From: a virus
Taxonomy: Duplodnaviria; Heunggongvirae; Uroviricota; Caudoviricetes
DNA: 13,238 nucleotides
Virus record (IMG/VR): IMGVR_UViG_2526164633_000018
Location: 1-13,238 of that record
Direction: 5' to 3' (one strand)
In this document: positions 1 to 13,238 of the stretch, piece after piece
Numbering within the stretch: the first letter of the stretch is position 1
How the letters are laid out: the number at the start of each line of letters is the position of its first letter
Position numbers and translations under genes: made by a program
The notes under the pieces: generated by a model
What the model saw: the letters and a program-made list of their open reading frames with translations, nothing else
What the model was told of the DNA's origin: nothing
Database searches by the model: none

Positions 1-4
1 GGGA

Positions 5-322
5 ATGACGTTCCCGGAACTGTATGACGACAGCCATCCGGAAGCCCTGGCCCGTAATACCCAGAAAATTTTCCGTTGGCTGGATAAAGACACCCCTGAT
101 GCTGTTGAAAAAATGCAGGCTCTGTTACCGGCGATCGAAAAGGCGATGCCGCCTTTGCTGGTGGCCCGTATGCGCAGCCACAGTTCTGAATATTACCGTG
201 AGATCGTCGAACGGAGGGATCGGCTGGTGAAGGATGTCGATGATTTTGTTGCGTCAGCGGTTGTTTTGTATGACCAGATGAATCGCGGCGGCCCGGCAGG
301 GAATGCTGTGGTGATGCACTAA
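5..322 (+). CDS. Phage early-region protein, probably 5'-truncated at the window edge; possibly a CII/YdaT-like regulator
   Basis: Reading frame is open back to nt 2 with no visible RBS, so the true start probably lies upstream of the window. Stop TAA at 320-322. It sits directly upstream of the replication initiator, as ydaT does in Rac-type modules. The family assignment is inference from position only. Confidence 0.4.
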   Translation: MTFPELYDDSHPEALARNTQKIFRWLDKDTPDAVEKMQALLPAIEKAMPPLLVARMRSHSSEYYREIVERRDRLVKDVDDFVASAVVLYDQMNRGGPAGNAVVMH

Positions 323-344
323 AAGCACGGTGTTCGGGGGTTTT

Positions 345-1493
345 ATGAGCAGCAAGCTTCATGGTCTTGTCTGGGAAGGGTGCGCCTTCACCGGCATGAT
401 CTTATCCAGGGTGGCGGTTATGGCCCGTCTTGCAGACTACAGCAATGACGAGGGCGTGTCATGGCCTGCCATTGAAACTATCCGGCGTCAGATCGGTGCA
501 AGAAGTGAATCCACAGTGAAATCGGCTATTGCAGAACTGGCGAAAGAGGGCTGGCTGACGAAGGAAGAGCGTAAGGTCGGTGGGCGTAATGTAAGCAATA
601 TCTATCGGCTTAATGTGGAAAAACTCGAAGCAGCTGCGGCGGCGGCGCGTGAGTCATATAAACCGAAAAGAAAAATTAGCCCGGCAAAAAATGACCCGTT
701 AACAGTTGACCCGTCAAATATTGACCCCTCAACGGTTGACCCGTCAAATTTTGATGGATCAACTGTTGATAAAAAACTGCCGATTAGGGGGGCGATGATT
801 GACCCCGATCCGTCAGTATTAAAACCTGATCCGTCAGATAAAAGATCTTCTTGTCCGGACGCTTCGCAACCGGACCCGCAGACGGCTGAACAGGATTTTT
901 TAACCCGACACCCTGACGCGGTTGTGTTCAGTGCGAAAAAACGCCAGTGGGGAAGTCAGGAAGATTTGGTGTGCGCACAGTGGATCTGGGGACGAATCGT
1001 GAGTCTTTACGAGCAGGCGGCCAGCGATGATGGCGAGATCACTAGACCGAAAGAACCCAACTGGACAGCATGGGCCAATGACGTTCGCACAATGCGGATG
1101 CTGGATGGCAGAACTCACAGACAAATTTGTGAAATGTTTGGGCGTCTCCAGCGGGATTCGTTCTGGGTAAAAAACATCATGAGTCCGGCAAAACTCCGGG
1201 AAAAATGGGATGAACTGGTTATCCGCCTGGGGCGTTCGCCTGCGCAGCGTTGCGTGAATCACATTTCTGAACCGGACACTGAAATACCGCCGGGATTCGA
1301 GGGGGTGACGTGTCATGAAAAACATTGCGGCAGGTTGGGGTTCTTGAACGTATTCGCAGACTTGCACCGACAGGGGTCGCTCCACCGTACCGGACGGTGG
1401 AGGAGTGGCGGGAATGGCAACTTGCTGAAGGACGAAAACGCAGCGAGGAGATTAACCGCCAGAATCGCCAGTTGCGGGTGGAAAAAATCCTGA
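345..1493 (+). CDS. Replication initiator (O-like): N-terminal HTH domain plus a C-terminal region resembling primosomal protein DnaT
   Basis: ATG at 345 follows a G-rich SD (cggggg, 335-340); the six-frame ORF opens at GTG 330. The N-terminus (ARLADYSNDEGVSWPAIETIRRQIGARSESTVKSAIAELAKEGWL) looks like an HTH. The C-terminal motif SEPDTEIPPGFEG matches my recollection of the DnaT C-terminus (…SEPDSQIPPGFRG). The last ~60 codons (VTCHEKHCGRLG…) are rich in C/H/R/G/W and look like an out-of-frame read-through into the next gene. Confidence 0.7.
   Translation: MSSKLHGLVWEGCAFTGMILSRVAVMARLADYSNDEGVSWPAIETIRRQIGARSESTVKSAIAELAKEGWLTKEERKVGGRNVSNIYRLNVEKLEAAAAAARESYKPKRKISPAKNDPLTVDPSNIDPSTVDPSNFDGSTVDKKLPIRGAMIDPDPSVLKPDPSDKRSSCPDASQPDPQTAEQDFLTRHPDAVVFSAKKRQWGSQEDLVCAQWIWGRIVSLYEQAASDDGEITRPKEPNWTAWANDVRTMRMLDGRTHRQICEMFGRLQRDSFWVKNIMSPAKLREKWDELVIRLGRSPAQRCVNHISEPDTEIPPGFEGVTCHEKHCGRLGFLNVFADLHRQGSLHRTGRWRSGGNGNLLKDENAARRLTARIASCGWKKS
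692..766 (+). repeat. Iteron array inside the initiator gene: five tandem 15-bp repeats (TGACCCGTCAANNNT consensus), putative origin of replication
   Basis: Direct repeats tgacccgttaacagt / tgacccgtcaaatat / tgacccctcaacggt / tgacccgtcaaattt / tgatggatcaactgt, each with an internal TGAC..GTCA dyad. An A-rich stretch (tgataaaaaactg) and two gatccgtcag repeats follow at 767-830. At protein level this encodes the (V/I)DPS(N/T) repeat. Lambda's ori lies inside O in the same way. Confidence 0.55.
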
Positions 1494-2062
1494 ATCGTTC
1501 GGGCATCCAGCCTCTGCACAGCAAATGCTCGTTTGCAAATTATCAGGTGCAGAACGACGGGCAAAAATACGCGCTGAGCCAGGCCAAATCCATAGCTGAC
1601 GAACTGATGACCGGGTGCACGAATTTTGTGTTCAGCGGTAAAACCGGCACCGGGAAAAATCACCTTGCAGCGGCGATGGGCAACCGGCTGATGGTGAAGG
1701 GGCGCAGCGTGATTATCGTCACCGTGTCTGACGTCATGAGCGTGTTGCATGACAGCTACGACAACGGCAAATCCGGGGAAAAATTTTTACAGGAGCTTTG
1801 CGGGGTTGATTTGCTGGTCCTGGATGAAATAGGCGTTCAGCGGGAGACGAAAAACGAGCAGGTGGTATTGCACCAGATAATTGATCGCCGGACAGCATCA
1901 CTGTGCAGTGTCGGGATGTTAACAAACCTGAATCATGCCGCAATGAGTACGCTTCTTGGTGAGAGGATTATGGACCGCATGACCATGAACGGTGGTCGAT
2001 GGGTGACGTTTAACTGGGATAGCTGGCGTCCAAATGTCAGCAATATGAGGGTTGTGAAGTAA
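1325..2062 (+). CDS. DnaC-like helicase loader (AAA+ ATPase, IstB/DnaC family); start uncertain and N-terminus apparently frame-disrupted
   Basis: Collinear similarity to E. coli DnaC as I recall it: Walker A FSGKTGTGKNHLAAA, Walker B LLVLDEIG, C-terminal WVTFNWDSWR. The six-frame ORF opens with TTG at 1325 with no SD. A well-placed ATG at 1315 (SD gaggggg 1299-1305) encodes MKNIAAGWGS then stops, in a different frame. Stop TAA at 2060-2062. Confidence 0.75.
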   Translation: MRQVGVLERIRRLAPTGVAPPYRTVEEWREWQLAEGRKRSEEINRQNRQLRVEKILNRSGIQPLHSKCSFANYQVQNDGQKYALSQAKSIADELMTGCTNFVFSGKTGTGKNHLAAAMGNRLMVKGRSVIIVTVSDVMSVLHDSYDNGKSGEKFLQELCGVDLLVLDEIGVQRETKNEQVVLHQIIDRRTASLCSVGMLTNLNHAAMSTLLGERIMDRMTMNGGRWVTFNWDSWRPNVSNMRVVK

Positions 2063-2083
2063 TTTTGTCCGGAGGAAATTTTA

Positions 2084-2287
2084 ATGGAAACCGTATCTGA
2101 CGCACTGAAAGCACTGAAAAAAGCCTCTTCACATGTGGTGGCAGCTCGCCTTGGAATCAGTCGTGAAGAGGCTGTCAACGAGCTGTGGGAACTCAAAAGA
2201 AATGGCGTCGTTGATAAAACTGGTCACACCTGGTTCTGGCTGGCGAAGGTGAATCCGGGTAACCGAAGAGCGGCCAGTAAAATCTGA
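2084..2287 (+). CDS. Small hypothetical protein (67 aa), winged-helix-like
   Basis: ATG at 2084 follows SD GGAGG (2071-2075) with 8-nt spacing. Motif [19 protein letters not shown] resembles an HTH. Compact genes on the same strand on both sides. Confidence 0.55.
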
Positions 2288-2297
2288 AGCACAGGAT

Positions 2298-2552
2298 ATG
2301 CTGACCGGGGAGGTCGAACAAAAAGTTACCGCAGACATGATGATTGAGTTTATCGGTCAGGATGGGGCTAAAACGTGTGAGGAACTGGCGGGTAAGTTCG
2401 GTGTCAGTACTCGCAAGGTTGCTTCCACGCTGGCGGTGGTAACCGCAACGGGGCGGCTGGCACGCGTTAATCAGAACGGTAAATTTCGTTACTGCATGCC
2501 GGGCGATAATTTACCAGCAGAGCCGAAAAGCCGCGCTGGTAACGGAAAGTGA
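2298..2552 (+). CDS. Small hypothetical protein (84 aa), winged-helix-like paralog of the preceding ORF
   Basis: ORF immediately follows the previous gene. Motif ELAGKFGVSTRKVASTLAVVTATG is HTH-like. The SD is weak, and an in-frame ATG at 2337 is an alternative start. Confidence 0.5.
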   Translation: MLTGEVEQKVTADMMIEFIGQDGAKTCEELAGKFGVSTRKVASTLAVVTATGRLARVNQNGKFRYCMPGDNLPAEPKSRAGNGK

Positions 2553-2634
2553 TGGTAAGGCCTTTCCTCAGCCAGCAGGTGCTGCGTTACCAGGCCGGGA
2601 AGCCGCAACACAGGAAGAAATTAAAACAGAAACT

Positions 2635-2853
2635 GTGGCGGACATTGTGCAGTCGTTGCCATCGTTTACCGAAACGCAAGCAGATGAGCTGATTTTTCCG
2701 TCCCTGCGCAGGGCAAACCTGGCGCTGCGCAGGGCGAAAAGTGATGTTCAGAAGTGGGAGCGAGTCTGCGCCGCGCTGCGGGAGCTGAACAAGCACCGGG
2801 ATATTGTTCGACAGATTACTGATTCTTCCCGCCGTGTTGTATCGGAAAAGTGA
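2635..2853 (+). CDS. Hypothetical protein (72 aa)
   Basis: ORF with a GTG start and no convincing SD. It fills the gap between flanking genes on the same strand, but the start and reality of the gene are uncertain. Confidence 0.3.
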   Translation: MADIVQSLPSFTETQADELIFPSLRRANLALRRAKSDVQKWERVCAALRELNKHRDIVRQITDSSRRVVSEK

Positions 2854-2868
2854 TTGCCGGAGGCGCTT

Positions 2869-3291
2869 ATGGCAAAAGTATTTACACAAGAAGAGCGGGA
2901 AAAAATTAAAGGGCAGGTTGTTGAGCTAGTACGCCGGAGTGGGCGCGAGACGTTACGGCAACTGGAAGCCAAGACAGGTGCGACAAGATATCTGATGAGT
3001 GTTCTCGCCAGAGAGCTGGTTGCCAGTGGCGATGTATACAACTCTGGTTACGGGTTATTCCCGTCTGAACAGGCGCGTAAGGACTGGCAAAACGCCCGCA
3101 AAAAACTCTCAAGGGCAAATCTGAAGAAACCATCTGTGGTTGATCCTGACCTTATCTGGCCATTACCAGACGGAGAAATACGCCGCTACGACAGGCGTCA
3201 AAACATAATCTGTAGCGAGTGCCGGAAGAGCGAAGCTATGCAGCGTGTACTGGCTTTCTATCAGGGTAATTTTCAGAAGGTGCTGTTGTGA
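2869..3291 (+). CDS. Hypothetical protein (140 aa) with an N-terminal winged-helix-like region and a C-terminal Cys-containing segment
   Basis: ATG at 2869 follows SD GGAGG (2859-2863); the six-frame ORF opens 5 codons earlier at 2854. Motif LRQLEAKTGATRYLMSVLARELVASG. Stop TGA at 3289-3291. Confidence 0.55.
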   Translation: MAKVFTQEEREKIKGQVVELVRRSGRETLRQLEAKTGATRYLMSVLARELVASGDVYNSGYGLFPSEQARKDWQNARKKLSRANLKKPSVVDPDLIWPLPDGEIRRYDRRQNIICSECRKSEAMQRVLAFYQGNFQKVLL

Positions 3292-3396
3292 GCCAAATTA
3301 ACAATCGGAACTTCGTGAAGAGAAAGCATAATCCAAATCTGAATAATTAAGTTCAGCACTGTAAATAAAATTTAATCCTTAACTGGAGGTATATCT

Positions 3397-3609
3397 ATGT
3401 CAAATACACAGAAAATTATTAACACTGAAAAATATAACGAGTGGGTGAAAAAATTCTCTGAGCAGATTTTTAAAATTACTGGCGACGAGAATGTGGCAAA
3501 AAATGAATTGGAACCGTGGACACCTGAAGGAAACGCACCAAATTATTGCTGGTGGGAGGTTGATCCGGTTGATGCTGCAAATGAAGCCATGAGTTACCAC
3601 AACGATTAA
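3397..3609 (+). CDS. Cassette gene A1: small acidic hypothetical protein (70 aa)
   Basis: Strong SD (ctggaggt) 7 nt upstream of ATG 3397. Intact paralog at 4663-4875 with about 9 of 70 residues different. Stop TAA at 3607-3609. Confidence 0.6.
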   Translation: MSNTQKIINTEKYNEWVKKFSEQIFKITGDENVAKNELEPWTPEGNAPNYCWWEVDPVDAANEAMSYHND

Positions 3610-3641
3610 TGTCGGGAGGCCGCCCGAAAGGGCGGTAAGAA

Positions 3642-3860
3642 ATGACTACATTATTCAGAAAAGAATATCCGCAAAAAAGTAGGGCGACAGAATTTTTGTT
3701 TCTCATTCTGTTTATCGTATTGATGATACCGATATCCCCTCTAATTTTTGTCTGGGCAATCGGGAAAATAATTGAGCCAGTTACTGAATTGTATAACGAC
3801 GTGGTATGGGCGTCATTCAACACACTGCACAATAAAATTAATCCGTATAAGGAAAACTGA
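3642..3860 (+). CDS. Cassette gene B1: small membrane protein (72 aa, one predicted TM helix)
   Basis: ATG at 3642 lies just downstream of a GC hairpin (gccgccc-gaaa-gggcggt) that follows a gggagg motif. Hydrophobic core FLFLILFIVLMIPISPLIFVWAIG. Stop TGA at 3858-3860 sits 1 nt before the next ATG. Confidence 0.5.
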   Translation: MTTLFRKEYPQKSRATEFLFLILFIVLMIPISPLIFVWAIGKIIEPVTELYNDVVWASFNTLHNKINPYKEN

Positions 3861-3861
3861 T

Positions 3862-4124
3862 ATGGCAACTTTGACAAAAAAGAACGGGCATGGTTGAACG
3901 AATTACAGGAAGTTCTTGATCGCTGTCCATCACCGAAAAAAATTGGCTTTTACACCATTGGCGATAAAAGCATTTACCTGTATGACCTACGCCGCATGGA
4001 TGAAATCATGGAGGCTCTTGATAATCGTTCGTCGATGGATTGGTGTGTTGCTGTTCATGATATGAATGCAGGGTTTGATGAAAAGATTTTGTTCCCCTCA
4101 TCAGTTGAAAGCACTGCGGGTTAA
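3862..4124 (+). pseudogene. Cassette gene C1, frameshifted in an A-tract (A6 here versus A7 in the intact paralog)
   Basis: ATG 3862 with the same SD context as C2, but atg gca act ttg aca aaa aag aac ggg cat ggt tga stops after 11 codons. The rest of the protein (NELQEVLDRCPSPKK…STAG) is intact in the +1 frame from TTG 3894. The paralog at 5127-5390 reads MATLTKKERAWLNELQ… uninterrupted. Confidence 0.45.
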
Positions 4125-4255
4125 GGAGTAACACATGACCACTATTACCAAAGAACGTATTGAATTGTTCATTAAATTTTCAGGAGGCGGTACTGTGAGT
4201 GAAATTAGCTATCAGGCTTCAATTACCGCTGGCATTCGCATCAAAGGAGAGGAGC

Positions 4256-4612
4256 ATGGAAATAAAACCAGAGGATGAGTTAAGCAATATCGTTTTATTT
4301 CCGGTAAAAGAGGATGACCCTCGTAATCAGGTTAATTTTCTTTATGAGCCATCGGAAAGACCATATTGCCATCACGCCTCTGTTCGGGTTGACGAAAAAG
4401 AGCGTCAGGTCCGCTGTAAAATCTGCGGTGCAGTTGTGGAGCCGTTTGACTGGATGCTCTCTGTGGCGAAAAGAGAAACCAGACTGGCAGATGATGTAAG
4501 GCTATTGCGCCAGGAGGAACAGGAAAGGCGGAAAAATATAGAAAAGTTAATTCAGATTGAGCGTAACGCGAAAGCGCGGATACGCAGGGCGACAAAATCC
4601 AGAACTGAATAA
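4256..4612 (+). CDS. Hypothetical zinc-ribbon-like protein (118 aa) with a basic, probably coiled-coil C-terminus
   Basis: ATG 4256 follows SD aggagaggag (4244-4253). Motifs PYCHH…CKICG are candidate metal ligands. C-terminus is rich in R/K/E/Q. Lies in the unique segment between the two cassette copies. The six-frame ORF opens upstream at 4199. Confidence 0.55.
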   Translation: MEIKPEDELSNIVLFPVKEDDPRNQVNFLYEPSERPYCHHASVRVDEKERQVRCKICGAVVEPFDWMLSVAKRETRLADDVRLLRQEEQERRKNIEKLIQIERNAKARIRRATKSRTE

Positions 4613-4662
4613 ATAAATTTAGCGCTGTAAATAAAATCTAATCCTTAACTGGAGGTATATTT

Positions 4663-4875
4663 ATGTTAAATACACAGAAAGCCATTAATGCGGAAAAATA
4701 TAACGAGTGGGCAAGAAAATTCTCTGAGCAGATTTTTAAAATTACTGGCGATGAGAATGCGGCAAAAAATGAATTAGAACCGTGGACGCCTGAAGGAGCC
4801 GACCCAAATTATTGCTGGAGGGAGGTTGATCCAGTTGATGCTGCAAATGAAGCTATGAGTTATCACAACGATTAA
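4663..4875 (+). CDS. Cassette gene A2: small acidic hypothetical protein (70 aa), paralog of A1
   Basis: Same SD (ctggaggt) and start context as A1. Protein is about 87% identical to A1 by eye. Confidence 0.6.
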   Translation: MLNTQKAINAEKYNEWARKFSEQIFKITGDENAAKNELEPWTPEGADPNYCWREVDPVDAANEAMSYHND

Positions 4876-4907
4876 TGTCAGGAGGCCGCCCGAAAGGGCG
4901 GTAATGA

Positions 4908-5124
4908 ATGGTCACATTATTTAGAAAAAATATCCGCGAAAGAGTAGAACAACAGAATTTCTGTTTCTCATTCTGTTTATCGTGTTGATGATACCGATAT
5001 CCCCGTTAATCCTAGCCTGGATAATCGGAAAAATAATTGAGCCAGTTATTGAATTGTATAACGACGTGGTATGGGCGTCATTCAACACACTGCACAATAA
5101 AATTAATCCGTATAAGGAAAACTG
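4908..5124 (+). pseudogene. Cassette gene B2, frameshifted by a 1-nt deletion in an A-rich tract
   Basis: ATG 4908 aligns with the B1 start. U1 reads agaaaagaatatccg where U2 reads agaaaaaatatccg, so the frame runs MVTLFRKNIRERVEQQNFCFSFCLSC then stops at 4986-4988. The TM-encoding remainder is only open in another frame, ending at TGA 5122-5124. Confidence 0.4.
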
Positions 5125-5126
5125 AT

Positions 5127-5390
5127 ATGGCAACTTTGACAAAAAAAGAACGGGCATGGTTGAACGAATTACAGGAAGTTCTTGATCGCTGTCCATCACC
5201 GAAAAAAATTGGCTTTTACACCATTGGCGATAAAAGCATTTACCTGTATGACCTACGCCGCATGGATGAAATCATGGAGGCTCTTGATAATCGTTCGTCG
5301 ATGGATTGGTGTGTTGCTGTTCATGATATGAATGCAGGGTTTGATGAAAAGATTTTGTTCCCCTCATCAGTTGAAAGCACTGCGGGTTAA
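5127..5390 (+). CDS. Cassette gene C2: hypothetical protein (87 aa), the intact copy
   Basis: ATG 5127 follows SD aaggaaaa. The six-frame ORF opens upstream at 5037 and includes this sequence. Stop TAA at 5388-5390. Confidence 0.6.
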   Translation: MATLTKKERAWLNELQEVLDRCPSPKKIGFYTIGDKSIYLYDLRRMDEIMEALDNRSSMDWCVAVHDMNAGFDEKILFPSSVESTAG

Positions 5391-5400
5391 GGAGTAACAC

Positions 5401-6270
5401 ATGACCACTATTACCAAAGAACGTATTGAATTGTTCATTAAAAATCCGCTTGAAAACGGGCTTACCCGTGGTGAACAAATGGAACTGGCACGGATTGCGC
5501 TGGCATCGCTGGAAGCAGAGCCGGTGGCAAAGATTATAGCTCATTACCCATTAGGGGTTGACGTAGGCAAACAAAAATTCGTACAGGCCATTAGAGAGCT
5601 TCCTGACTTTGGCGGATATCTATTTGCCGCCCCTCCAGCGCCGATAGTGCCGGAAGAAATGTATTGGCAGGATGCGCCAGTTGAAGGCAGCAGCAAAGCG
5701 ACTGCATACGCTACAGGCTGGAACGATTGCCGCGAAGCCATGCTTCAGTCCGGAAACTTTCGGGAAAATAAAGATTCGTCAACCAATAATTTTCGGAAAA
5801 TCCCGGAAGCGTCAACCAGCTCTCCGGTAACTCCGGCTCTTCTGCCTGGTGGTTTCACCATTGAGGAGGCGAAGGAATTACATGAAGACCTGGTACGCAG
5901 CCACATAAGCAAGGCCTTAAGTGGCGAAAAGATGAAAAAGAAAGATCGCGATGCTGATTTGCGCTGGATTCATGGCGTTATAGTTCAGGCAGCGTGGTTT
6001 GTAAAAGCATCACTGGAGCAGAATGCACTATCGGGCAACTATCCGGTAACTCCGGATAGTTGGATAAGCTGTAGTGAGCGAATGCCGGATACCAAAACAG
6101 CCGTTCTTGTTGCCAGGGATTTTGGCAGGAAAGGTGACTGGCGAATGAAATGGGCGACTTACATCCCGGGGCATCCTGACGCTAATGATGGGTGGATAAT
6201 ACCTGGTGCGTCGTGGATACCATCACACTGGATGCCTCTACCAGAACCGCCGCAGGAGGTGCGCCAATGA
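5401..6270 (+). CDS. Phage protein with a C-terminal DUF551-like domain (289 aa)
   Basis: ATG 5401 follows SD aaggag. The C-terminal segment (WISCSERMPD…VLVA…W…PSHWMPLPEPP) matches the DUF551 pattern as I recall it from lambdoid nin-region proteins. Stop overlaps the next small ORF. Confidence 0.65.
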   Translation: MTTITKERIELFIKNPLENGLTRGEQMELARIALASLEAEPVAKIIAHYPLGVDVGKQKFVQAIRELPDFGGYLFAAPPAPIVPEEMYWQDAPVEGSSKATAYATGWNDCREAMLQSGNFRENKDSSTNNFRKIPEASTSSPVTPALLPGGFTIEEAKELHEDLVRSHISKALSGEKMKKKDRDADLRWIHGVIVQAAWFVKASLEQNALSGNYPVTPDSWISCSERMPDTKTAVLVARDFGRKGDWRMKWATYIPGHPDANDGWIIPGASWIPSHWMPLPEPPQEVRQ

Positions 6271-6350
6271 ACTGGCCTGAAGCATTTGCAATTACAGGCG
6301 TTGCTATGGCTATCGCTTTTTTAGTATATGTTATTTGTCGGTGGGGGTAA
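6267..6350 (+). CDS. Possible micro-ORF encoding a 27-aa hydrophobic peptide
   Basis: ATG 6267 overlaps the stop of the upstream gene (aATGA). Peptide MNWPEAFAITGVAMAIAFLVYVICRWG has a single TM-like segment. Below usual gene-calling size, so low confidence. Confidence 0.3.
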   Translation: MNWPEAFAITGVAMAIAFLVYVICRWG

Positions 6351-6385
6351 AAACGTTCGCCGGGATTAACACCAAAGGAGGGAAT

Positions 6386-6490
6386 ATGTCGGATGATATA
6401 TCACTGGCAATGGAAGGTGCGCTGGCTGTTGTTGCTGTTGTGGGTGTTTACTGCCTGGTTGTGTTTTTGATGGAGCGCCTGGGGAACTGA
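6386..6490 (+). CDS. Possible micro-ORF encoding a 34-aa hydrophobic peptide
   Basis: Strong SD aaggaggg (6375-6382) before ATG 6386. Peptide MSDDISLAMEGALAVVAVVGVYCLVVFLMERLGN has an acidic N-terminus and a TM-like core. Confidence 0.4.
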   Translation: MSDDISLAMEGALAVVAVVGVYCLVVFLMERLGN

Positions 6491-6531
6491 ATTCATTCCG
6501 TATGGGAATTCCCATATCGGGTAAAAACGGT

Positions 6532-6559
6532 TTGCGGTAAAGCGAGAGTTAAGTAGAAT
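6532..6559 (+). promoter_or_regulatory. Putative sigma70 promoter of the hok mRNA
   Basis: -35 TTGCGG (6532-6537), 16-bp spacer, -10 TAGAAT (6554-6559). The predicted 5' leader begins …gcttgaggctatctgcctcagg, which resembles the conserved hok mRNA 5' element as I recall it. Confidence 0.45.
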
Positions 6560-6619
6560 TGCTGCGGGTGCTTGAGGCTATCTGCCTCAGGCATGAACAC
6601 CAAAAGGCAGATAGAGAAA

Positions 6620-6690
6620 AGCCCCAGTTAACATTACGCGTCCTGCAAGACGCTTAACATTAATCTGAGGCCCAATCTATGTCTCACAAA
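6620..6690 (-). ncRNA. sok: Putative Sok-like antisense RNA; boundaries approximate
   Basis: On the minus strand there is a promoter-like -35 TTGCCT (complement of 6717-6722), 17-bp spacer and -10 TAACCT (complement of 6694-6699). The transcript would be antisense to the upstream ATG at 6679 and its SD. Inferred from hok/sok locus organisation; ends not determined. Confidence 0.3.
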
Positions 6691-6735
6691 TGTAGGTTAG
6701 CCTCTTACGTGCCGAAAGGCAAGGAGAAGCAGGCT

Positions 6736-6891
6736 ATGAAGCAGCAAAAGGCGATGTTAATCGCCCTGATCGTCATCTGTTTAACCGTCATAGTGACGGC
6801 ACTGGTAACGAGGAAAGACCTCTGCGAGGTACGAATCCGAACCGGCCAGACGGAGGTCGCTGTCTTCACAGCTTACGAACCTGAGGAGTAA
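6736..6891 (+). CDS. hokD: Hok/Gef-family type I toxin (51 aa), HokD/RelF-like
   Basis: Translation MKQQKAMLIALIVICLTVIVTALVTRKDLCEVRIRTGQTEVAVFTAYEPEE matches the Hok family (TM helix plus the conserved periplasmic tail) and, from memory, HokD/RelF specifically. SD aaggagaag lies upstream. The six-frame ORF opens at an upstream in-frame ATG (6679). Confidence 0.85.
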   Translation: MKQQKAMLIALIVICLTVIVTALVTRKDLCEVRIRTGQTEVAVFTAYEPEE

Positions 6892-6958
6892 GAGACCAGG
6901 CGGGGGAGAATCCCTCGCCACCTCTGATGTGTCAGGCATCCTCAACGCACCCGCACTT

Positions 6959-6985
6959 AACCCGCTTCGGCGGGTTTTGTTTTTT
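6959..6985 (+). terminator. Rho-independent terminator ending the hok transcript
   Basis: Stem aacccgc / gcgggtt with loop ttcg, followed by ttttgtttttt. Confidence 0.6.
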
Positions 6986-7057
6986 CCTAGCATTCTGGTT
7001 TACAATTCGCACGCCAGCCTGAACAACTGGCACCTGCTGCGCCAGCAGAGACAACCG

Positions 7058-7336
7058 ATGGCGCACGATACCAAATTACACAATTCTGATGATTCTGCCG
7101 TCTTTGCCAGCAGGCACGGGCGGCGTTCCCGCACTTTCAAATCTGACTGGTTCCAGCATCCCCCATGCACTGAAGAACAGGCCGAGTGGCTAATTCAGTG
7201 CTACCGCAGACACGGATACGAGATTAAGAAAGCCCTCAGCCTCGATTATCGTCACTGGATAATCTCCGTCAGGCTTCCTTACTCCGAGCGCCCACCGCGT
7301 CCGTCCCGCACATTCCAGCAACGCATCTGGAGGTAA
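7058..7336 (+). CDS. Hypothetical protein (92 aa); by position possibly equivalent to the Qin-prophage rem gene
   Basis: ATG 7058 lies inside a longer six-frame ORF (6929-7336) whose upstream part overlaps the hok terminator. It sits between hok and the DUF968 gene, as rem sits between hokD and ydfU in Qin. The rem assignment is from synteny only. Confidence 0.45.
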   Translation: MAHDTKLHNSDDSAVFASRHGRRSRTFKSDWFQHPPCTEEQAEWLIQCYRRHGYEIKKALSLDYRHWIISVRLPYSERPPRPSRTFQQRIWR

Positions 7337-7337
7337 C

Positions 7338-8387
7338 GTGCGGGTATTACTTCGACCTGTTCTGGTACCGGAACTCGGGCTGGTGATCGTTAAGCCGGGC
7401 CGTGAATCCATGCCGGTATTCCACAATACCCGGGTACTGGTGGAGCCGGAACCGAAAAGCATGCGTAATCTGCCGTCCGGGGTTGTTCCTGCCGTTCACC
7501 AGCCGCTAGTGGAAGACAAAACATTGCTGCCGTTTTTCAGTAACGCACGGGTGATTCGTGCTGCTGGTGGTGCTGGTGCATTGTCTGACTGGCTGTTGCG
7601 CCATATTAAATCCTGCCAGTGGCCACACGGCGATTATCATCACAGCGAAACCGTCATTCACCGTTATGGTACCGGCGCAATGGTGTTGTGCTGGCACTGC
7701 GACAACCAGCTGCGTGACCAGACATCCGAATCACTCGGGCAACTTGCTCACCAAAATTTGTCAGCATGGATGATTGACGTCATACGCCATGCAATGAATG
7801 GCACGCAGGAGCGGGAATTATCTCTGGGTGAATTATCCTGGTGGGCGGTCTGCAATCAGGTGGCGGACGCGCTTCCGGAGGCAGTATTACGTCGTTCTCT
7901 GGGGTTACGTGCGGAAAAAATCCGCCCCTTGTACCGCGAAAGCGACATCGTACCGGGAGAGCAGACCGCCATCAGCATACTGAAACAGCGCACAAAAAAT
8001 CTTGCGCCGCTGCCTCACGCCCACCAGCAACAGAACCCACCACAGGAAAAGACGGTGGTCAGCATTGCCGTTGATCCTGAGCCTCCGGAATCTTTCATGA
8101 AACGACCTAAACGTCGCCGCTGGGTTAACGAGAAATACACACGCTGGGTGAAGACTCAGCCGTGTGCGTGTTGTGGTAAGCCAGCCGACGATCCCCATCA
8201 CCTGATTGGTCATGGTCAGGGCGGAATGGGGACAAAATCTCACGATATTTTCACGCTACCGCTGTGTCGGGAGCATCACAACGAGCTTCATGCGGATCCG
8301 CTGGCGTTCGAAGAAAAGCATGGCTCTCAGGTTGATTTAATTTTTCGTTTTCTTGATCACGCCTTTGCAACTGGCGTGCTTGGGTAA
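7338..8387 (+). CDS. DUF968-type phage protein (YdfU-like, 349 aa) with a C-terminal HNH-like Cys/His motif
   Basis: GTG 7338 follows SD GGAGG (7330-7334). C-terminus …WVKTQPCACCGKPADDPHHLIGHGQGGMGTKSHDIFTLPLCREHHNELH has HNH-type spacing of Cys/His ligands. Position between hok and rusA/Q matches Qin-like synteny. Confidence 0.7.
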   Translation: MRVLLRPVLVPELGLVIVKPGRESMPVFHNTRVLVEPEPKSMRNLPSGVVPAVHQPLVEDKTLLPFFSNARVIRAAGGAGALSDWLLRHIKSCQWPHGDYHHSETVIHRYGTGAMVLCWHCDNQLRDQTSESLGQLAHQNLSAWMIDVIRHAMNGTQERELSLGELSWWAVCNQVADALPEAVLRRSLGLRAEKIRPLYRESDIVPGEQTAISILKQRTKNLAPLPHAHQQQNPPQEKTVVSIAVDPEPPESFMKRPKRRRWVNEKYTRWVKTQPCACCGKPADDPHHLIGHGQGGMGTKSHDIFTLPLCREHHNELHADPLAFEEKHGSQVDLIFRFLDHAFATGVLG

Positions 8388-8399
8388 AAGAGGTGACTG

Positions 8400-8774
8400 A
8401 TGCTCATAGATTTGGTTTTACCTTACCCGCCAACGGTGAACACCTACTGGCGACGTCGTGGCAGCACATATTTTATCTCGGAGGAGGGAAAGCGTTATCG
8501 CCGGGCTGTGGCGCTTATTGTTCGCCAGCAGCGGCTGAAATTAATCCTGTCCGGAAGGCTGGCGATAAAGGTGATTGCAGAGCCACCGGATAAGCGTCGT
8601 CGCGACCTGGACAATATCCTGAAAGCACCGCTGGATGCGCTGACGCATGCGGGAGTGTTAATGGACGATGAGCAGTTTGATGAAATCAATATCGTTCGTG
8701 GTCAGCCAGTATCTGGTGGACGTCTGGGGGTGAAGATTTACCCCATAATGCTTGAAGGGCAGGTCAAAAAATGA
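8400..8774 (+). CDS. rusA: RusA-family Holliday-junction resolvase (124 aa)
   Basis: ATG 8400 follows SD agaggtg. Motif PDKRRRDLDNILKAPLDALTHAGVLMDDEQ matches the RusA catalytic region (recalled E. coli RusA …PDRRRRDLDNLQKA…). Stop overlaps the next gene start (ATGA at 8771-8774). Confidence 0.85.
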   Translation: MLIDLVLPYPPTVNTYWRRRGSTYFISEEGKRYRRAVALIVRQQRLKLILSGRLAIKVIAEPPDKRRRDLDNILKAPLDALTHAGVLMDDEQFDEINIVRGQPVSGGRLGVKIYPIMLEGQVKK

Positions 8775-9592
8775 AACTGGAAGATTTACCGAAATACTAC
8801 TCCCCAAAATCCCTCGGCCTGACTGATGCATCGGCCTCAACGTCGAAAGATACGCTGAGTATCACTGATGTGATGGCCGCGCAGGGCATGACACAGAATT
8901 GGGCTGAGATGGGGTTTTCTGCGTTCCTTGGGAAAATGGGCATTAGTATGAATGACAGAGAGCGGGCAACAGAATTGCTGACAGAATATGCACTCAGTCG
9001 GTGTGATCGCGTGGCGGCGTTAAGAAAACTCCCGGCAGAAATAAAACCGGCAGTGATGCGTATTATGGCTTCGTATGCGTTTGAAGATTATGCCCGTAGC
9101 GCGGCGAGCAAAAAACAGTGCCCCTGTTGTCACGGAAAAAAATTTATTGAAAGCGAGGTTTTTACAAACAAGATCCAGTATCCGGATGGTAAGCCGCCAG
9201 TGTGGGCAAAGTGCACAAAAGGAGTGTATCCGTCTTACTGGGAGGAATGGAAAAAAGTCAGGGAGGTGGTAAAAGTTGCCTGTCCGGAGTGTGGAGGGAA
9301 GGGAGAGGTATCCACTGCCTGTAAAGATTGTCGTGGGCGCGGTGTTGCCATTCATCGTGAAGAGTCGGTAAAACGTGGTATGCCTGTTATCAGAGACTGC
9401 CAGCGTTGTGGTGGTCGTGGCTATGAAAGATTACCTTCAACGGAGGCATTTAATGCCATATGTAATGTAACCGATGCCATATCTCTTGATACATGGAAAA
9501 AAACAGTTAAACGTTTTTACGATACGCTGGTGGTGCAGTTTGATATTGAAGAAGCATGGGCAGAACAACAACTGAAAAAGGTGACCAGATAG
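8771..9592 (+). CDS. Lambda-type late antiterminator Q (273 aa), longer than lambda Q
   Basis: Collinear with lambda Q as I recall it: SPKS…TDVMAA.GM…YA(F/Y)(E/A)DY.RSAA…Cys-rich zinc motifs…(F/L)YD.LVVQ…VTR at the C-terminus. It is followed immediately by a lambda PR'-like sequence. Confidence 0.85.
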   Translation: MKLEDLPKYYSPKSLGLTDASASTSKDTLSITDVMAAQGMTQNWAEMGFSAFLGKMGISMNDRERATELLTEYALSRCDRVAALRKLPAEIKPAVMRIMASYAFEDYARSAASKKQCPCCHGKKFIESEVFTNKIQYPDGKPPVWAKCTKGVYPSYWEEWKKVREVVKVACPECGGKGEVSTACKDCRGRGVAIHREESVKRGMPVIRDCQRCGGRGYERLPSTEAFNAICNVTDAISLDTWKKTVKRFYDTLVVQFDIEEAWAEQQLKKVTR

Positions 9593-9597
9593 CTTTG

Positions 9598-9633
9598 TTG
9601 ATTTTTCCCGAATCTGTGGTAAATTTGCCCTAA
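9598..9633 (+). promoter_or_regulatory. Late promoter PR' with probable qut / pause-inducing region
   Basis: -35 TTGATT (9598-9603), 16-bp spacer, -10 TAAATT (9620-9625). The segment ggtaaatttgccctaacgatggg closely resembles lambda PR' (ggtaaatttgactcaacgatggg, from memory). Predicted start is about 9632-9633. Confidence 0.6.
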
Positions 9634-9673
9634 CGATGGGCGTTTTATGCCTGACGTTAGAAGATTTTTTACA

Positions 9674-9696
9674 CCCGTCGCCAGGCGGGTTTTTTT
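9674..9696 (+). terminator. tR'-like rho-independent terminator downstream of PR'
   Basis: GC-rich hairpin cccgt / gcggg with a 6-nt loop, followed by T7 (9690-9696). Sits about 60 nt downstream of the predicted PR' start. Confidence 0.5.
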
Positions 9697-9741
9697 ATGA
9701 CTGAAATCACGCCAGTACAGTAAACGCGCTGGTGGTTGTGA

Positions 9742-10192
9742 ATACCGGTCTTTCAGCTTGCTGGCTTTTTCGACAAGAGTTATTGGTGTGTCACGTTAAC
9801 CGGAAAAAGGAAAGTTTGAGAAACGCGATCTGGCACAGGCGGTTATTAATGCTGCCTACCTGGTGGCCTGTGCAGATGGTGAATGTGAGGCTTCCTAGAA
9901 AGCGAAGATCGAACAGGTACTGCGTAATCAGCCTGCGCTGTCCGCGTTTACGTCAGAAATTAATGCGATTAGCGCAACCATTATCGGTCAGCTGGATACG
10001 AACTTTAAAACTGGTCGTCGTGCGGCGTTACGTGAGATCGAGGATGTGAAACACGATACGCGTGAAGCGGAAGATGTGCTGGATGTGGCGGTGGCCATTG
10101 CGGAGGCAGACGGCGAAATTGAGCCGGAAGAGCGCAAGGTGCTGGAAGAGATTGCCGGTGTTCTGGGTCTTCGTCTGGAGAATCACCTGTGA
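9742..10192 (+). pseudogene. Decayed TerB-like (tellurite-resistance TerB / DjlA-N-type) gene with an in-frame amber stop, a frameshift and no start codon
   Basis: Frame 2 reads …DLAQAVINAAYLVACADGECEAS*KAKIEQVL…AVAIAEADGEIEPEERKVLEEIAGVLGLRLENHL, showing two ADG-E…E repeats typical of TerB domains. A TAG at 9896-9898 falls where the second repeat has Glu. Upstream the frame closes at TAA 9797-9799 with no start, and the N-terminal-like segment GFFDKSYW… is in frame 1. Confidence 0.45.
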
Positions 10193-10320
10193 CGGTAAAA
10201 CTGCGCCTGGCTGTGGCTGCACTCCTGCTGTTTCTGGTGGTGATGGTGGATTTCACCAGCAGAATCATGTCGGTGCTGGCGGATGGGGTGCTGGTCTGCG
10301 GCATTGTGGTATTGCTGTAG
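10189..10320 (+). CDS. Possible small membrane protein (43 aa)
   Basis: GTG 10189 overlaps the TerB-like stop (GTGA) and follows SD ggaga (10176-10180). Peptide VTVKLRLAVAALLLFLVVMVDFTSRIMSVLADGVLVCGIVVLL is hydrophobic throughout. Not listed as its own ORF in the six-frame track; expression is uncertain given the upstream pseudogene. Confidence 0.3.
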   Translation: MTVKLRLAVAALLLFLVVMVDFTSRIMSVLADGVLVCGIVVLL

Positions 10321-10516
10321 CCGGTGATAAAAAGAAACAGCCTGCATAATGCTTGATTTTTTTATTTGCTGTTTATTAAAAATACTACTGCATGGTGAAT
10401 CCCCCTGTGCGGAGGGGCAATCAGCAAGTAGGTATATGTGATAATCGCGGATTCAGGTGCTGATACTGAATTCACCGGGAGGCACCCGGCACCATGCAAG
10501 AAAAAGAATGTGCATG

Positions 10517-10548
10517 CAAAAATGCCCCTCTCCGGAGGGGCATTTTTT
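10517..10548 (+). terminator. Strong rho-independent terminator, potentially bidirectional
   Basis: A-tract caaaaat, then 7-bp stem gcccctc / gaggggc with loop tccg, then atttttt. A second hairpin (gcccgaa-tggg-ttcgggc, 10562-10579) preceded by taaaaaa follows and is oriented for the minus strand. Confidence 0.6.
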
Positions 10549-10762
10549 ATGGGTAAAAAATGCCCGAATGGGTTCGGGCAATAGCATGAGATACTGATAT
10601 TGTTGTGTTGTTATCGTGTGGATTTTAACCAGGGTTTATCAGGCTGCGCAACTGCGTGGCCTTCTTCATTTCTTGGGCTGTAGTCCCCGTGTGTCATTCA
10701 GGCTTCCGGACTACAGCCCACTCCATATCTGATTTAATACACTATCCCGGCCGGGAGGAATA

Positions 10763-12616
10763 ATGACATTTAAACATTATGATGTTGTCAGGGCGGCGTC
10801 GCCGTCAGACCTTGCGGAAAAGCTGACACACAAACTGAAAGAGGGCTGGCAGCCGTTTGGTAGTCCGGTGGCCATAACCCCTTATACCCTGATGCAGGCG
10901 ATTACAGCAGAAGGTGATGTGGTGGTCAGTGGTGCAACTGAGCCGGATTGGTACTACGTCATCGTACTGGCCGGGCAGTCCAATGCCATGGCTTACGGTG
11001 AAGGGCTTCCGCTGCCGGATTCATACGATGCTCCGGATCCGCGCATTAAACAGCTGGCGCGCCGCAGTACAGTGACGCCGGGTGGGGCTGCCTGCAGATA
11101 TAACGATATTATTCCGGCCGACCACTGCCTGCATGATGTGCAGGATATGAGTACGCTGAATCATCCGAAGGCAGACCTGAGCAAAGGGCAGTACGGCTGT
11201 GTCGGCCAGGGCTTACATATTGCCAAAAAACTGCTTCCGTATATCCCGAATAACGCGGGGATCCTGCTGGCACCATGCTGTCGTGGTGGTTCGGCATTCA
11301 CCCAGGGCGCGGAGGGGACATTCAGTGCGGACACGGGGGCCAGCCAGGATTCGGCACGCTGGGGTGTGGGTAAACCGTTATATCAGGACCTGATTGCGCG
11401 CACTAAAGCTGCATTACAGAAGAACCCGAAAAATGTGTTGCTGGCGGTGTGCTGGATGCAGGGAGAGTTTGACATGAGCGCCGCCACCTACGCACAGCAA
11501 CCTGCGCTGTTTACAGCCATGCTGAAGCAGTTTCGTGCTGACCTCACTGTGTTTAACGCGCAGTGTCATGGTGGCAGTGCTGCAGATGTGCCGTGGATTT
11601 GTGGTGACACGACGTATTACTGGAAAAATACATACGCTACCCAGTACGACACCGTGTACGGCGGGTATAAAAACAGGGAGAGTGAGGGCGTTTATTTTGT
11701 GCCCTTCATGACAGACGGTAACGGCGTCAATACCGCCACTAACGCGCCGGCAGAAGATCCGGATATTCCGGCATCAGGATATTACGGTGCGGCATCGAGA
11801 ACGAATGGAAACCAGGTATCATCAAACCGCCCGACACATTTCAGTTCATGGGCGCGCAGGAGCATTATTCCGGATCGTCTGGCAACCGCTATTCTGAACG
11901 CAGCCGGGCGCACCTCAGCCTTCATCAGTGGTAAGGCACCGGAAATCAAACCCTCGCCCGGCGGCAACACGCCATCGGGTCCGTCTGCAGATACGTCCGT
12001 TCGCACAATCTCCCTGCTGCCGGCAGCCGGAGAGGCTGCTGCGCAGGGCTGGAGCATTAAGGATGGCGGAATTCAGTTGTCAGATGGTGTATTTAAGATC
12101 ACCAAGCAGAGCAATAAAACCTGGTCCCTGACGCATCCGGTGGATGACGCAATTACCCTGCTGACACAGGGCGGCAGACTGACCTGTAAGTTCCGCCTGT
12201 CAGGCGCACTGACCAACAATCAGTTCGGGCTGGGGATTTATCTGTATACGGATGCTCCCGTTCCTGATGGTGTGGCGATGACGGGTACCGGTAATCCGTT
12301 CCTGATGTCGTACTTCACTCAGACCACTGACGGCAGAGTGAATCTGATGCATCACAGGAAAGCCGGAAACACGAAGCTGGGGGAGTTCGGCGATTACGGT
12401 AACGACTGGCAGACGCTGGAGCTGGTGTTCACCGCCGGCAGTGCCACGGTTACTCCGAAACTGAATGGAGTGGCTGGCCCGGCATTCCAGGTTATAAAAG
12501 ACGGTCTGACACTGGGACTGAATGCGCTGACGCTGACGGATGTTACAAAAAATGCAGCGTATGGCGTTGAGATAGAAAGTCTGGTGCTGGAGATAAATGC
12601 ACCGGCATCATCATAA
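10763..12616 (+). CDS. Prophage sialate O-acetylesterase, NanS-p-like (617 aa): N-terminal DUF1737-like region, SGNH/SASA esterase domain, C-terminal extension
   Basis: ATG 10763 follows SD gggagg. N-terminus MTFKHYDVV…; esterase motif YVIVLAGQSNAMAYGEG (the GQSN block of sialate esterases). Size and position (after Q, before the holin) match nanS-p genes of Stx-type lambdoid phages. Confidence 0.8.
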   Translation: MTFKHYDVVRAASPSDLAEKLTHKLKEGWQPFGSPVAITPYTLMQAITAEGDVVVSGATEPDWYYVIVLAGQSNAMAYGEGLPLPDSYDAPDPRIKQLARRSTVTPGGAACRYNDIIPADHCLHDVQDMSTLNHPKADLSKGQYGCVGQGLHIAKKLLPYIPNNAGILLAPCCRGGSAFTQGAEGTFSADTGASQDSARWGVGKPLYQDLIARTKAALQKNPKNVLLAVCWMQGEFDMSAATYAQQPALFTAMLKQFRADLTVFNAQCHGGSAADVPWICGDTTYYWKNTYATQYDTVYGGYKNRESEGVYFVPFMTDGNGVNTATNAPAEDPDIPASGYYGAASRTNGNQVSSNRPTHFSSWARRSIIPDRLATAILNAAGRTSAFISGKAPEIKPSPGGNTPSGPSADTSVRTISLLPAAGEAAAQGWSIKDGGIQLSDGVFKITKQSNKTWSLTHPVDDAITLLTQGGRLTCKFRLSGALTNNQFGLGIYLYTDAPVPDGVAMTGTGNPFLMSYFTQTTDGRVNLMHHRKAGNTKLGEFGDYGNDWQTLELVFTAGSATVTPKLNGVAGPAFQVIKDGLTLGLNALTLTDVTKNAAYGVEIESLVLEINAPASS

Positions 12617-12701
12617 AAAGTGAGCCAGTCAAATGGAAGGTATCGTTAAACTCACCGGTAGTGTCAGTGGGTCGTCTGAGATGCCTGCATGAGTTATCAG
12701 A

Positions 12702-12731
12702 GCCATCAGTACTTAACTGGTGGCTTTTTTT
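12702..12731 (+). terminator. Rho-independent terminator after the esterase gene
   Basis: Stem ccatcag / ctggtgg (one G-U pair) with loop tacttaa, followed by T7 (12725-12731). Confidence 0.5.
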
Positions 12732-12766
12732 ATTGTTGTCAGCTTCCGGATAACGGGAGACGGGGT

Positions 12767-12982
12767 ATGTACCAGATGGAAAAAATCACAACAGGTGTGT
12801 CATACACCACGTCAGCGGTGGGAACGGGCTACTGGTTCCTGCAGTTGCTGGACAGGGTTTCCCCGTCTCAGTGGGCGGCAATAGGCGTGCTGGGGAGTCT
12901 GCTGTTTGGGCTGCTGACATATCTGACTAACCTGTATTTCAAAATCAGAGAGGACCGTCGTAAGGCTGCACGGGGAGAGTAA
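12767..12982 (+). CDS. Class I holin (lambdoid S-type, 71 aa) with a dual-start motif
   Basis: ATG 12767 follows SD gggaga. MYQMEK has Met1 and Met4, the holin/antiholin dual-start pattern. Hydrophobic segments [18 protein letters not shown] and a charged C-terminus [13 protein letters not shown]. The six-frame ORF opens upstream at 12689. Confidence 0.85.
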
Positions 12983-12986
12983 TTCA

Positions 12987-13238
12987 ATGACTCAAAACTA
13001 TGAACTGATTGTGAAAGGGATCCGCAATTTTGAGAATAAAGTTACGGTAACTTTAGCGTTACGGGACAAAAAACGCTTTGACGGTGAAATTTTTGACCTG
13101 GACATCTCGCTGGACCGTGTTGAAGGTGCCGCGCTGGAGTTTTATGAGGCAGCAGCCAGAAGGAGCATCAGACAGGTCTTCCTGGATGTTGCTGCTGGGT
13201 TATGTGAAGAGGATGAGCTGTTGCCGGAAAAGTGCCCC
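12987..13238 (+). CDS. Hypothetical lysis-region protein, 3'-truncated at the window end
   Basis: ATG 12987 follows SD ggagag. Open to the end of the window (84 codons, MTQNYELIVKGIRNFENK…). Not a recognisable lysozyme N-terminus. Confidence 0.55.
   Translation, partial: MTQNYELIVKGIRNFENKVTVTLALRDKKRFDGEIFDLDISLDRVEGAALEFYEAAARRSIRQVFLDVAAGLCEEDELLPEKCP

Follow-up and report, generated by a model that had tools for sequence, protein, structure and literature searches.

Why does one of 2 otherwise identical copies of a small prophage gene end after 11 codons, and is the run of adenines at which it breaks the site of a mutation, a base-calling error, or a switch? This question is raised by a 13,238-nucleotide (nt) stretch of Escherichia coli DNA (IMG/VR record IMGVR_UViG_2526164633_000018, positions 1 to 13,238; hereafter the window), which corresponds in full to draft contig AIHB01000030.1 (assembly GCA_000250235.2; locus L084). 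The window carries 2 copies of an 87-codon gene, here named gene C: a frameshifted copy (C1) and, 1.27 kb downstream on the same contig, an intact copy (C2) (Table 1). A single missing A, which shortens a run of 7 A (A7) to a run of 6 (A6), distinguishes C1 from C2, and we consider it on balance probable that this contraction is a real, inherited slippage mutation.

Pairwise alignment revealed that the 392-nt block containing C1 (3785–4176) is identical to the block containing C2 (5050–5442) except for one A, in agreement with the original prediction that C1 is broken by A6 versus A7. Upstream of this block, the 2 modules in which the copies lie are only ~90% identical. The copies already differ at base 3784, 91 nt before the tract, where copy 1 has C and copy 2 has T, and SNPs follow farther upstream at 3660–3780. 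The tract with its flanks occurs once in the window in the form TTGAC-A6-GAACGGG (3871–3888) and once in the form TTGAC-A7-GAACGGG (5136–5154), each with a chance expectation of 0.00–0.01. Translation of C1 from the ATG at 3862 yields MATLTKKNGHG, with the frame shifted at codon 8, and then reaches the TGA at 3895–3897; C2 encodes 87 amino acids (aa) with the N-terminus MATLTKKERAWLNELQ. Thus, copy 1 ends after 11 codons and copy 2 is intact, as had been predicted, with the start of copy 2 corrected to 5127. Near-identical relatives of the window have an intact 264-nt gene (WP_000224233.1) at the C1 position. Gene conversion as the cause of the 100% identity between C1 and C2 was considered and rejected, as the same gene sequence (WP_000224233.1) is present in unrelated prophages.

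The C2 protein matches the phrog_1714 profile over its full length (1–87 of 87, E 9.5e-51), and no Pfam family was found for it. A search returned 135 homologues of the gene C protein across Enterobacterales; phrog_1714, a family of unknown function, is conserved as an accessory gene among lambdoid and Rac-like prophages. All 70 homologues that were aligned are single open reading frames (ORFs); among them, residues L4, T5, K6, K7, and E8 are conserved at 90% or more, and W11 is invariant. The conserved N-terminal residues sit in a helix (residues 6–20) of the predicted structure model, which is confident (predicted local distance difference test score 92.4). Judged from this alignment and this model, the truncation would strip needed residues (L4–E8 and W11) from the product. 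The original C frame is reopened by a TTG codon at 3894–3896 and runs for 76 codons to 4124. The predicted restart at TTG 3894 is therefore mechanically right; however, because both the conserved LTKKE motif and invariant W11 are missing from its product, the TTG is not credible as a functional start. A different 76-aa C variant (P0052; 832 contigs), in which the first 22 residues are replaced by MVVSAIASTPH, occurs in Shigella sonnei and is fixed in many assemblies of that species; it presumably stems from an insertion or rearrangement junction.

Comparison with related prophages, which had been proposed as a check, bears on whether the A6 is a real allele. In support of A7 as the ancestral state, ten near-identical relatives (98.9–99.7% identity over up to 4.66 kb) carry A7 at the C1 tract, with the exception of locus L020, which shares the A6. 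L020, a separate contig of 9,242 nt, terminates within C1; it is 99.67% identical to window positions 1–3928 and has none of the 7 other private indels of the window (1299–2526). In addition, A7 was called properly in the window itself at the C2 tract (5141–5147) and at both occurrences of a second A7 run in gene C (3936–3942 and 5202–5208; codons CCG AAA AAA ATT, P K K I), so that any under-calling would be unsystematic. From these observations, we infer that the A6 is probably a genuine allele and no miscall. C1 would then derive from an 87-codon accessory gene in which one A was lost from the A7 run of the codons ACA AAA AAA (Thr-Lys-Lys), most likely through unprogrammed replication slippage, and the shortened allele would have been inherited within a small prophage lineage. 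The resulting frameshift at codon 8 and the stop after 11 codons would make C1 a pseudogene. Because the identical, intact C2 would still supply the protein from 1.27 kb downstream, the loss of C1 would cost little.

Several observations weigh against an inherited mutation and favor a sequencing or assembly artefact, in which the genome has A7 in both copies, the draft under-called one base, and C1 is intact in the cell: (i) compared with the ten near-identical relatives, the draft contig has private single-base indels at 1299, 1333, 1369, ~1379, 2233, 2254, and 2526, which lengthen the O-like gene, cut the DnaC-like gene short, and break DUF1627 into 3 ORFs, and whose clustering suggests a low-quality patch in the draft consensus; (ii) a second A7-to-A6 change at 4925–4930 (TTTAG-A6-TATCC) is the sole difference between the window and loci L077 and L029 in 2,412 nt, and with it 2 of the 10 tracts expected at 7 nt are one base short; (iii) none of the complete RefSeq E. 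coli genomes contains an exact A6 copy; (iv) other A6 records include error-rich assemblies, namely L080, which has 39 gaps in 3.7 kb and whose A6 looks like a sequencing error, and phage vB_EcoM-813R1 (ON470617.2, L213 478–483), in which the gene is unannotated and both A7 runs of gene C have become A6, probably through homopolymer error in the record; and (v) the A6 of L020 may not be independent at the read level. The contig consensus is clearly indel-prone. Set against these points are the A6 of L020, a different contig free of the other 7 indels, the properly called A7 tracts in the same assembly, and the existence of A6 and A8 alleles in assemblies that show no indel in 5 kb other than the tract itself. 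We therefore hold the artefact to be possible but rather doubtful. The contraction at 4925–4930 frameshifts B2, the second DUF4014 copy (4908–5125); with one broken gene per module (C1 and B2), one intact B and one intact C remain.

Tract-length changes recur at this site in other assemblies. Besides the window and L020, A6 is present in L079, L080, L081, L083, and L085, and A8 is present in L078 and L082. L082 (A8) differs from its A7 relative L050 by no mismatch and a single gap, the tract itself, in 5,000 nt; between L083 (A6) and L043 there are 1 mismatch and 1 gap, and between L081 (A6) and L032 there are 4 mismatches and 1 gap. Changes of the L081–L083 type seem to be isolated and of recent origin, in assemblies that are otherwise clean. 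The Salmonella orthologue varies at the same place: in Salmonella Heidelberg, 5 assemblies have A5GG, a −1 frameshift relative to the in-frame A6GG, and one Logan contig has A7GG (+1). The presence of the Heidelberg frameshift in 5 assemblies means that loss of the gene is tolerated. In these Salmonella P22-like prophages (L088–L093), the orthologue lies between Ead/Ea22 and a dATP/dGTP pyrophosphohydrolase-DUF551 gene. Taken over these records, the A tract is a weak hot spot for mutation as well as for base-calling error. It also lies close to the ends of contigs: in L086, L087, and ~9 similar contigs, which come from different assemblies, the sequence breaks off at one identical base immediately beyond the A tract, 7 nt before the TTG, which suggests that assemblers often break near the A tract or the repeat boundary.

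The original prediction had offered a slippage-based switch as one reading of the tract. Simple-sequence contingency loci are the phase-variable homopolymer tracts of Neisseria, Haemophilus, and Campylobacter, and gene C resembles them in that its tract lies in the 5′ coding region, at codons 5–7, where the loss or gain of one base is predicted from the reading frames to toggle expression (the protein is truncated with A6 or A8 and intact with A7). The 3 lengths all exist in public assemblies, as do A5GG and A7GG in the Salmonella allele. In an evolved switch of this kind, the poly-A tract would toggle gene C at high frequency through replication or transcription slippage. It has also been reported that AAAAAAA is under-represented in E. 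coli genes, possibly owing to slippage (PMC4066793).

However, in contingency loci, on and off lengths are both common among isolates, whereas the off lengths of gene C are very rare. Among complete RefSeq E. coli genomes, the exact A7 71-mer matched 393 records, and the exact A6 70-mer and A8 72-mer matched none. A7 was present in 72 of 73 IMG/VR loci, the remaining one being the near-identical contig L020 with A6; all 31 metagenome contigs were in frame; and no phage GenBank record contained an exact A6 match. In a collection of 15 billion proteins, the exact 76-aa product was found on 44 contigs, a part of which are contig-edge truncations (L086 and L087), compared with at least 1,000 contigs for the 87-aa form. 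Out-of-frame alleles thus make up roughly 0.1–1% of copies across the collections searched, rather than tens of percent. The search for related loci yielded only relatives of at least 99% identity and hence no extra diversity. Species-representative genomes contained one locus only, L003 (JAJXBQ010000292.1), a 3.3-kb contig that comes from this E. coli prophage region and was binned in a Segatella copri metagenome-assembled genome, likely as binning contamination.

Nor is the tract kept beyond coding need. It is only 7 nt long, and distant homologues use ACC AAA AAA GAA, ACC AAG AAA GAA, or ACC CGG AAA GAA for the same residues, and the Salmonella allele uses AAA AAG GAA. Because homologues encode these residues with other codons, the A7 run appears, on codon comparison, to be a lineage-specific by-product of Lys codon choice and no conserved nucleotide feature; conservation of Lys-Lys as protein accounts for the A run. 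A switch acting through promoter spacing was considered as well, since TTGACA (3871–3876) resembles a −35 hexamer, and was rejected: no site using TTGACA passed the scan, so that 3871 offers no scorable promoter whose spacer could be tuned, and the total of promoter-like sites in the scan equaled the shuffle expectation. Because off alleles were rare everywhere we searched and the A7 tract is unconserved at the nucleotide level in distant homologues, the proposed switch is not supported, and we judge it very unlikely. In the slippage mutation that we favor, the A tract would be a weak mutational hot spot and no evolved switch.

The contraction has a further consequence, absent from the original prediction: the A6 allele accidentally creates the slippery heptamer A_AAA_AAG. 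At 3876–3882, this heptamer lies in the zero frame as an X_XXY_YYZ motif with an open −1 frame, as in dnaX, and it is identical to the heptamer of the dnaX-type site. A simulated −1 slip at the heptamer in C1 gave MATLTKKERAW..., a product identical to C2. This raises the alternative that A6 is the functional form, in which a programmed −1 ribosomal frameshift of the dnaX type sets the level of protein C or yields an 11-aa peptide. Where stimulators are present, A_AA.A_AA.G is indeed one of the most efficient frameshift motifs of E. coli, but without them motifs yield only 2.1–10 times the background of 0.055% (PMC4066793). Unlike the dnaX-type site, C1 has neither an upstream stimulator nor a significant downstream structure. 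No Shine-Dalgarno-like element was found 10–14 nt upstream of the heptamer, where the sequence reads ATGGCAACTTTGAC, and gene C's own AAGGA lies ~23 nt upstream. A downstream hairpin, 3 nt after the heptamer, has a predicted energy of −14.2 kcal/mol compared with a shuffle mean of −13.9 (z = −0.12) and thus shows no excess stability. The configuration is also a rare allele and is unconserved, with nearly all homologues plainly in frame (393 A7 versus 0 A6 complete-genome records; 31/31 metagenome contigs). We consider a programmed frameshift extremely unlikely.

Under an inherited slippage mutation, a few ribosomes may nevertheless slip −1 on the A6 allele and make the normal protein. Because the upstream Shine-Dalgarno-like element is lacking, the hairpin equals shuffled sequence, and the stimulator-free efficiency of the motif is low, such rescue is probably well below 1% and incidental rather than programmed. 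A combination of the 2 foregoing ideas, in which the tract is a reversible, low-frequency on/off element whose A6 off state is deliberately leaky through the dnaX heptamer A_AAA_AAG, is highly improbable. If it were true, a "saviour" frameshift would give graded expression of the accessory gene C, whose predicted fold is novel.

The window covers the early-right region of an E. coli prophage of Rac-like or lambdoid type, and its left part has the gene order ydaT, an O-like helix-turn-helix gene, a DnaC-like ATPase gene, DUF1627, and DUF977, followed by module 1 (A1, B1, and C1). Module 2 (A2, B2, and C2) lies farther downstream (Table 1). The left part (1–4655) is 99.4% identical to prophages with the order DUF977-A-B-C-47aa-118aa-DUF7167 (for example, L001), and the right part (4317–12628) is 99.9% identical to prophages with the order DUF977-118aa-A-B-C-DUF551 (for example, L077). 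Judged by these alignments, modules 1 and 2 are not a simple tandem duplication; rather, 2 prophage types are joined through the shared segment 4175–4655, which carries the 47-aa and 118-aa genes. Neither the 5,426 complete E. coli genomes nor the fetched loci contain the joined order A-B-C ... A-B-C collinearly; therefore, the arrangement is a rare recombinant or else a chimeric assembly. The 118-aa protein encoded between the modules has a sub-threshold match to a zinc-ribbon (TFIIB-type) Pfam family (E 1.6e-4, 21.5 bits versus a cut-off of 29).

Table 1. Coordinates of gene C features and neighboring genes in the window.
Feature	Positions	Strand	Remarks
C1, frameshifted copy of the 87-codon prophage gene (phrog_1714)	3862..4124	+	Equals C2 minus one A
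11-codon remnant frame, MATLTKKNGHG plus stop	3862..3897	+	Translation
A6 tract (3876–3881) plus G, heptamer A_AAA_AAG in the zero frame (codons ACA AAA AAG)	3876..3882	+	Sequence; simulated −1 shift
Rest of the original C frame, 76-aa ORF called mechanically from TTG	3894..4124	+	TTG overlaps the remnant stop (TTGA)
C2, intact 87-aa copy	5127..5390	+	Translation; phrog_1714 match
A7 tract of C2 (codons ACA AAA AAA GAA, T K K E)	5141..5147	+	
Repeated block, equal to 5050–5442 save the tract	3785..4176	+	DUF4014 gene 3′ end, gene C, and first 42 nt of the next gene; pairwise alignment
A1	3397–3609		Module 1
B1 (DUF4014)	3642–3860		Module 1; C1 next
47-aa gene	4135–4278		Between modules
118-aa gene (phrog_1621)	4256–4612		Between modules
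A2	4663–4875		Module 2
B2 (second DUF4014 copy)	4908–5125		Module 2; C2 next
DUF551	5401–6270		Followed by hok, DUF968, rusA, Q, and others

Among known systems, C1 is closest to the homopolymer frameshift pseudogenes of decaying or redundant prophage genes in E. coli and Salmonella, in which a one-base change of an A run inactivates a small, non-essential gene. Nothing substantive separates C1 from these cases, and it is unusual only in having an identical, intact counterpart 1.27 kb away on the same contig. Gene C has also been disrupted in other ways in other lineages, through A5GG in Salmonella Heidelberg, N-terminal replacements, and fusions. The homopolymer miscalls of draft and long-read assemblies are likewise similar to C1, as a single base is affected in a 7-nt run and the contig has other private one-base indels, but C1 differs from them in that the same A6 is present in the second, otherwise clean contig L020. 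By contrast with the contingency loci, the gene C tract is a short poly-A run that comes from Lys codons. The C1 change is thus an ordinary one-base homopolymer contraction, whether by mutation or miscall, and the small prophage gene copy that it affects is redundant.

In annotations, C1 should be marked either as a frameshifted pseudogene or as a possible sequencing error, and the TTG-start protein of 76 aa that has been deposited for C1 and ~40 other contigs should not be taken as a real isoform. The contig illustrates how spurious small proteins arise from indel-prone drafts. Beyond annotation, the change has little importance. It is mildly interesting in that the contraction makes a perfect in-frame A_AAA_AAG, and C1 may therefore serve as a convenient natural test case for translational indel rescue.
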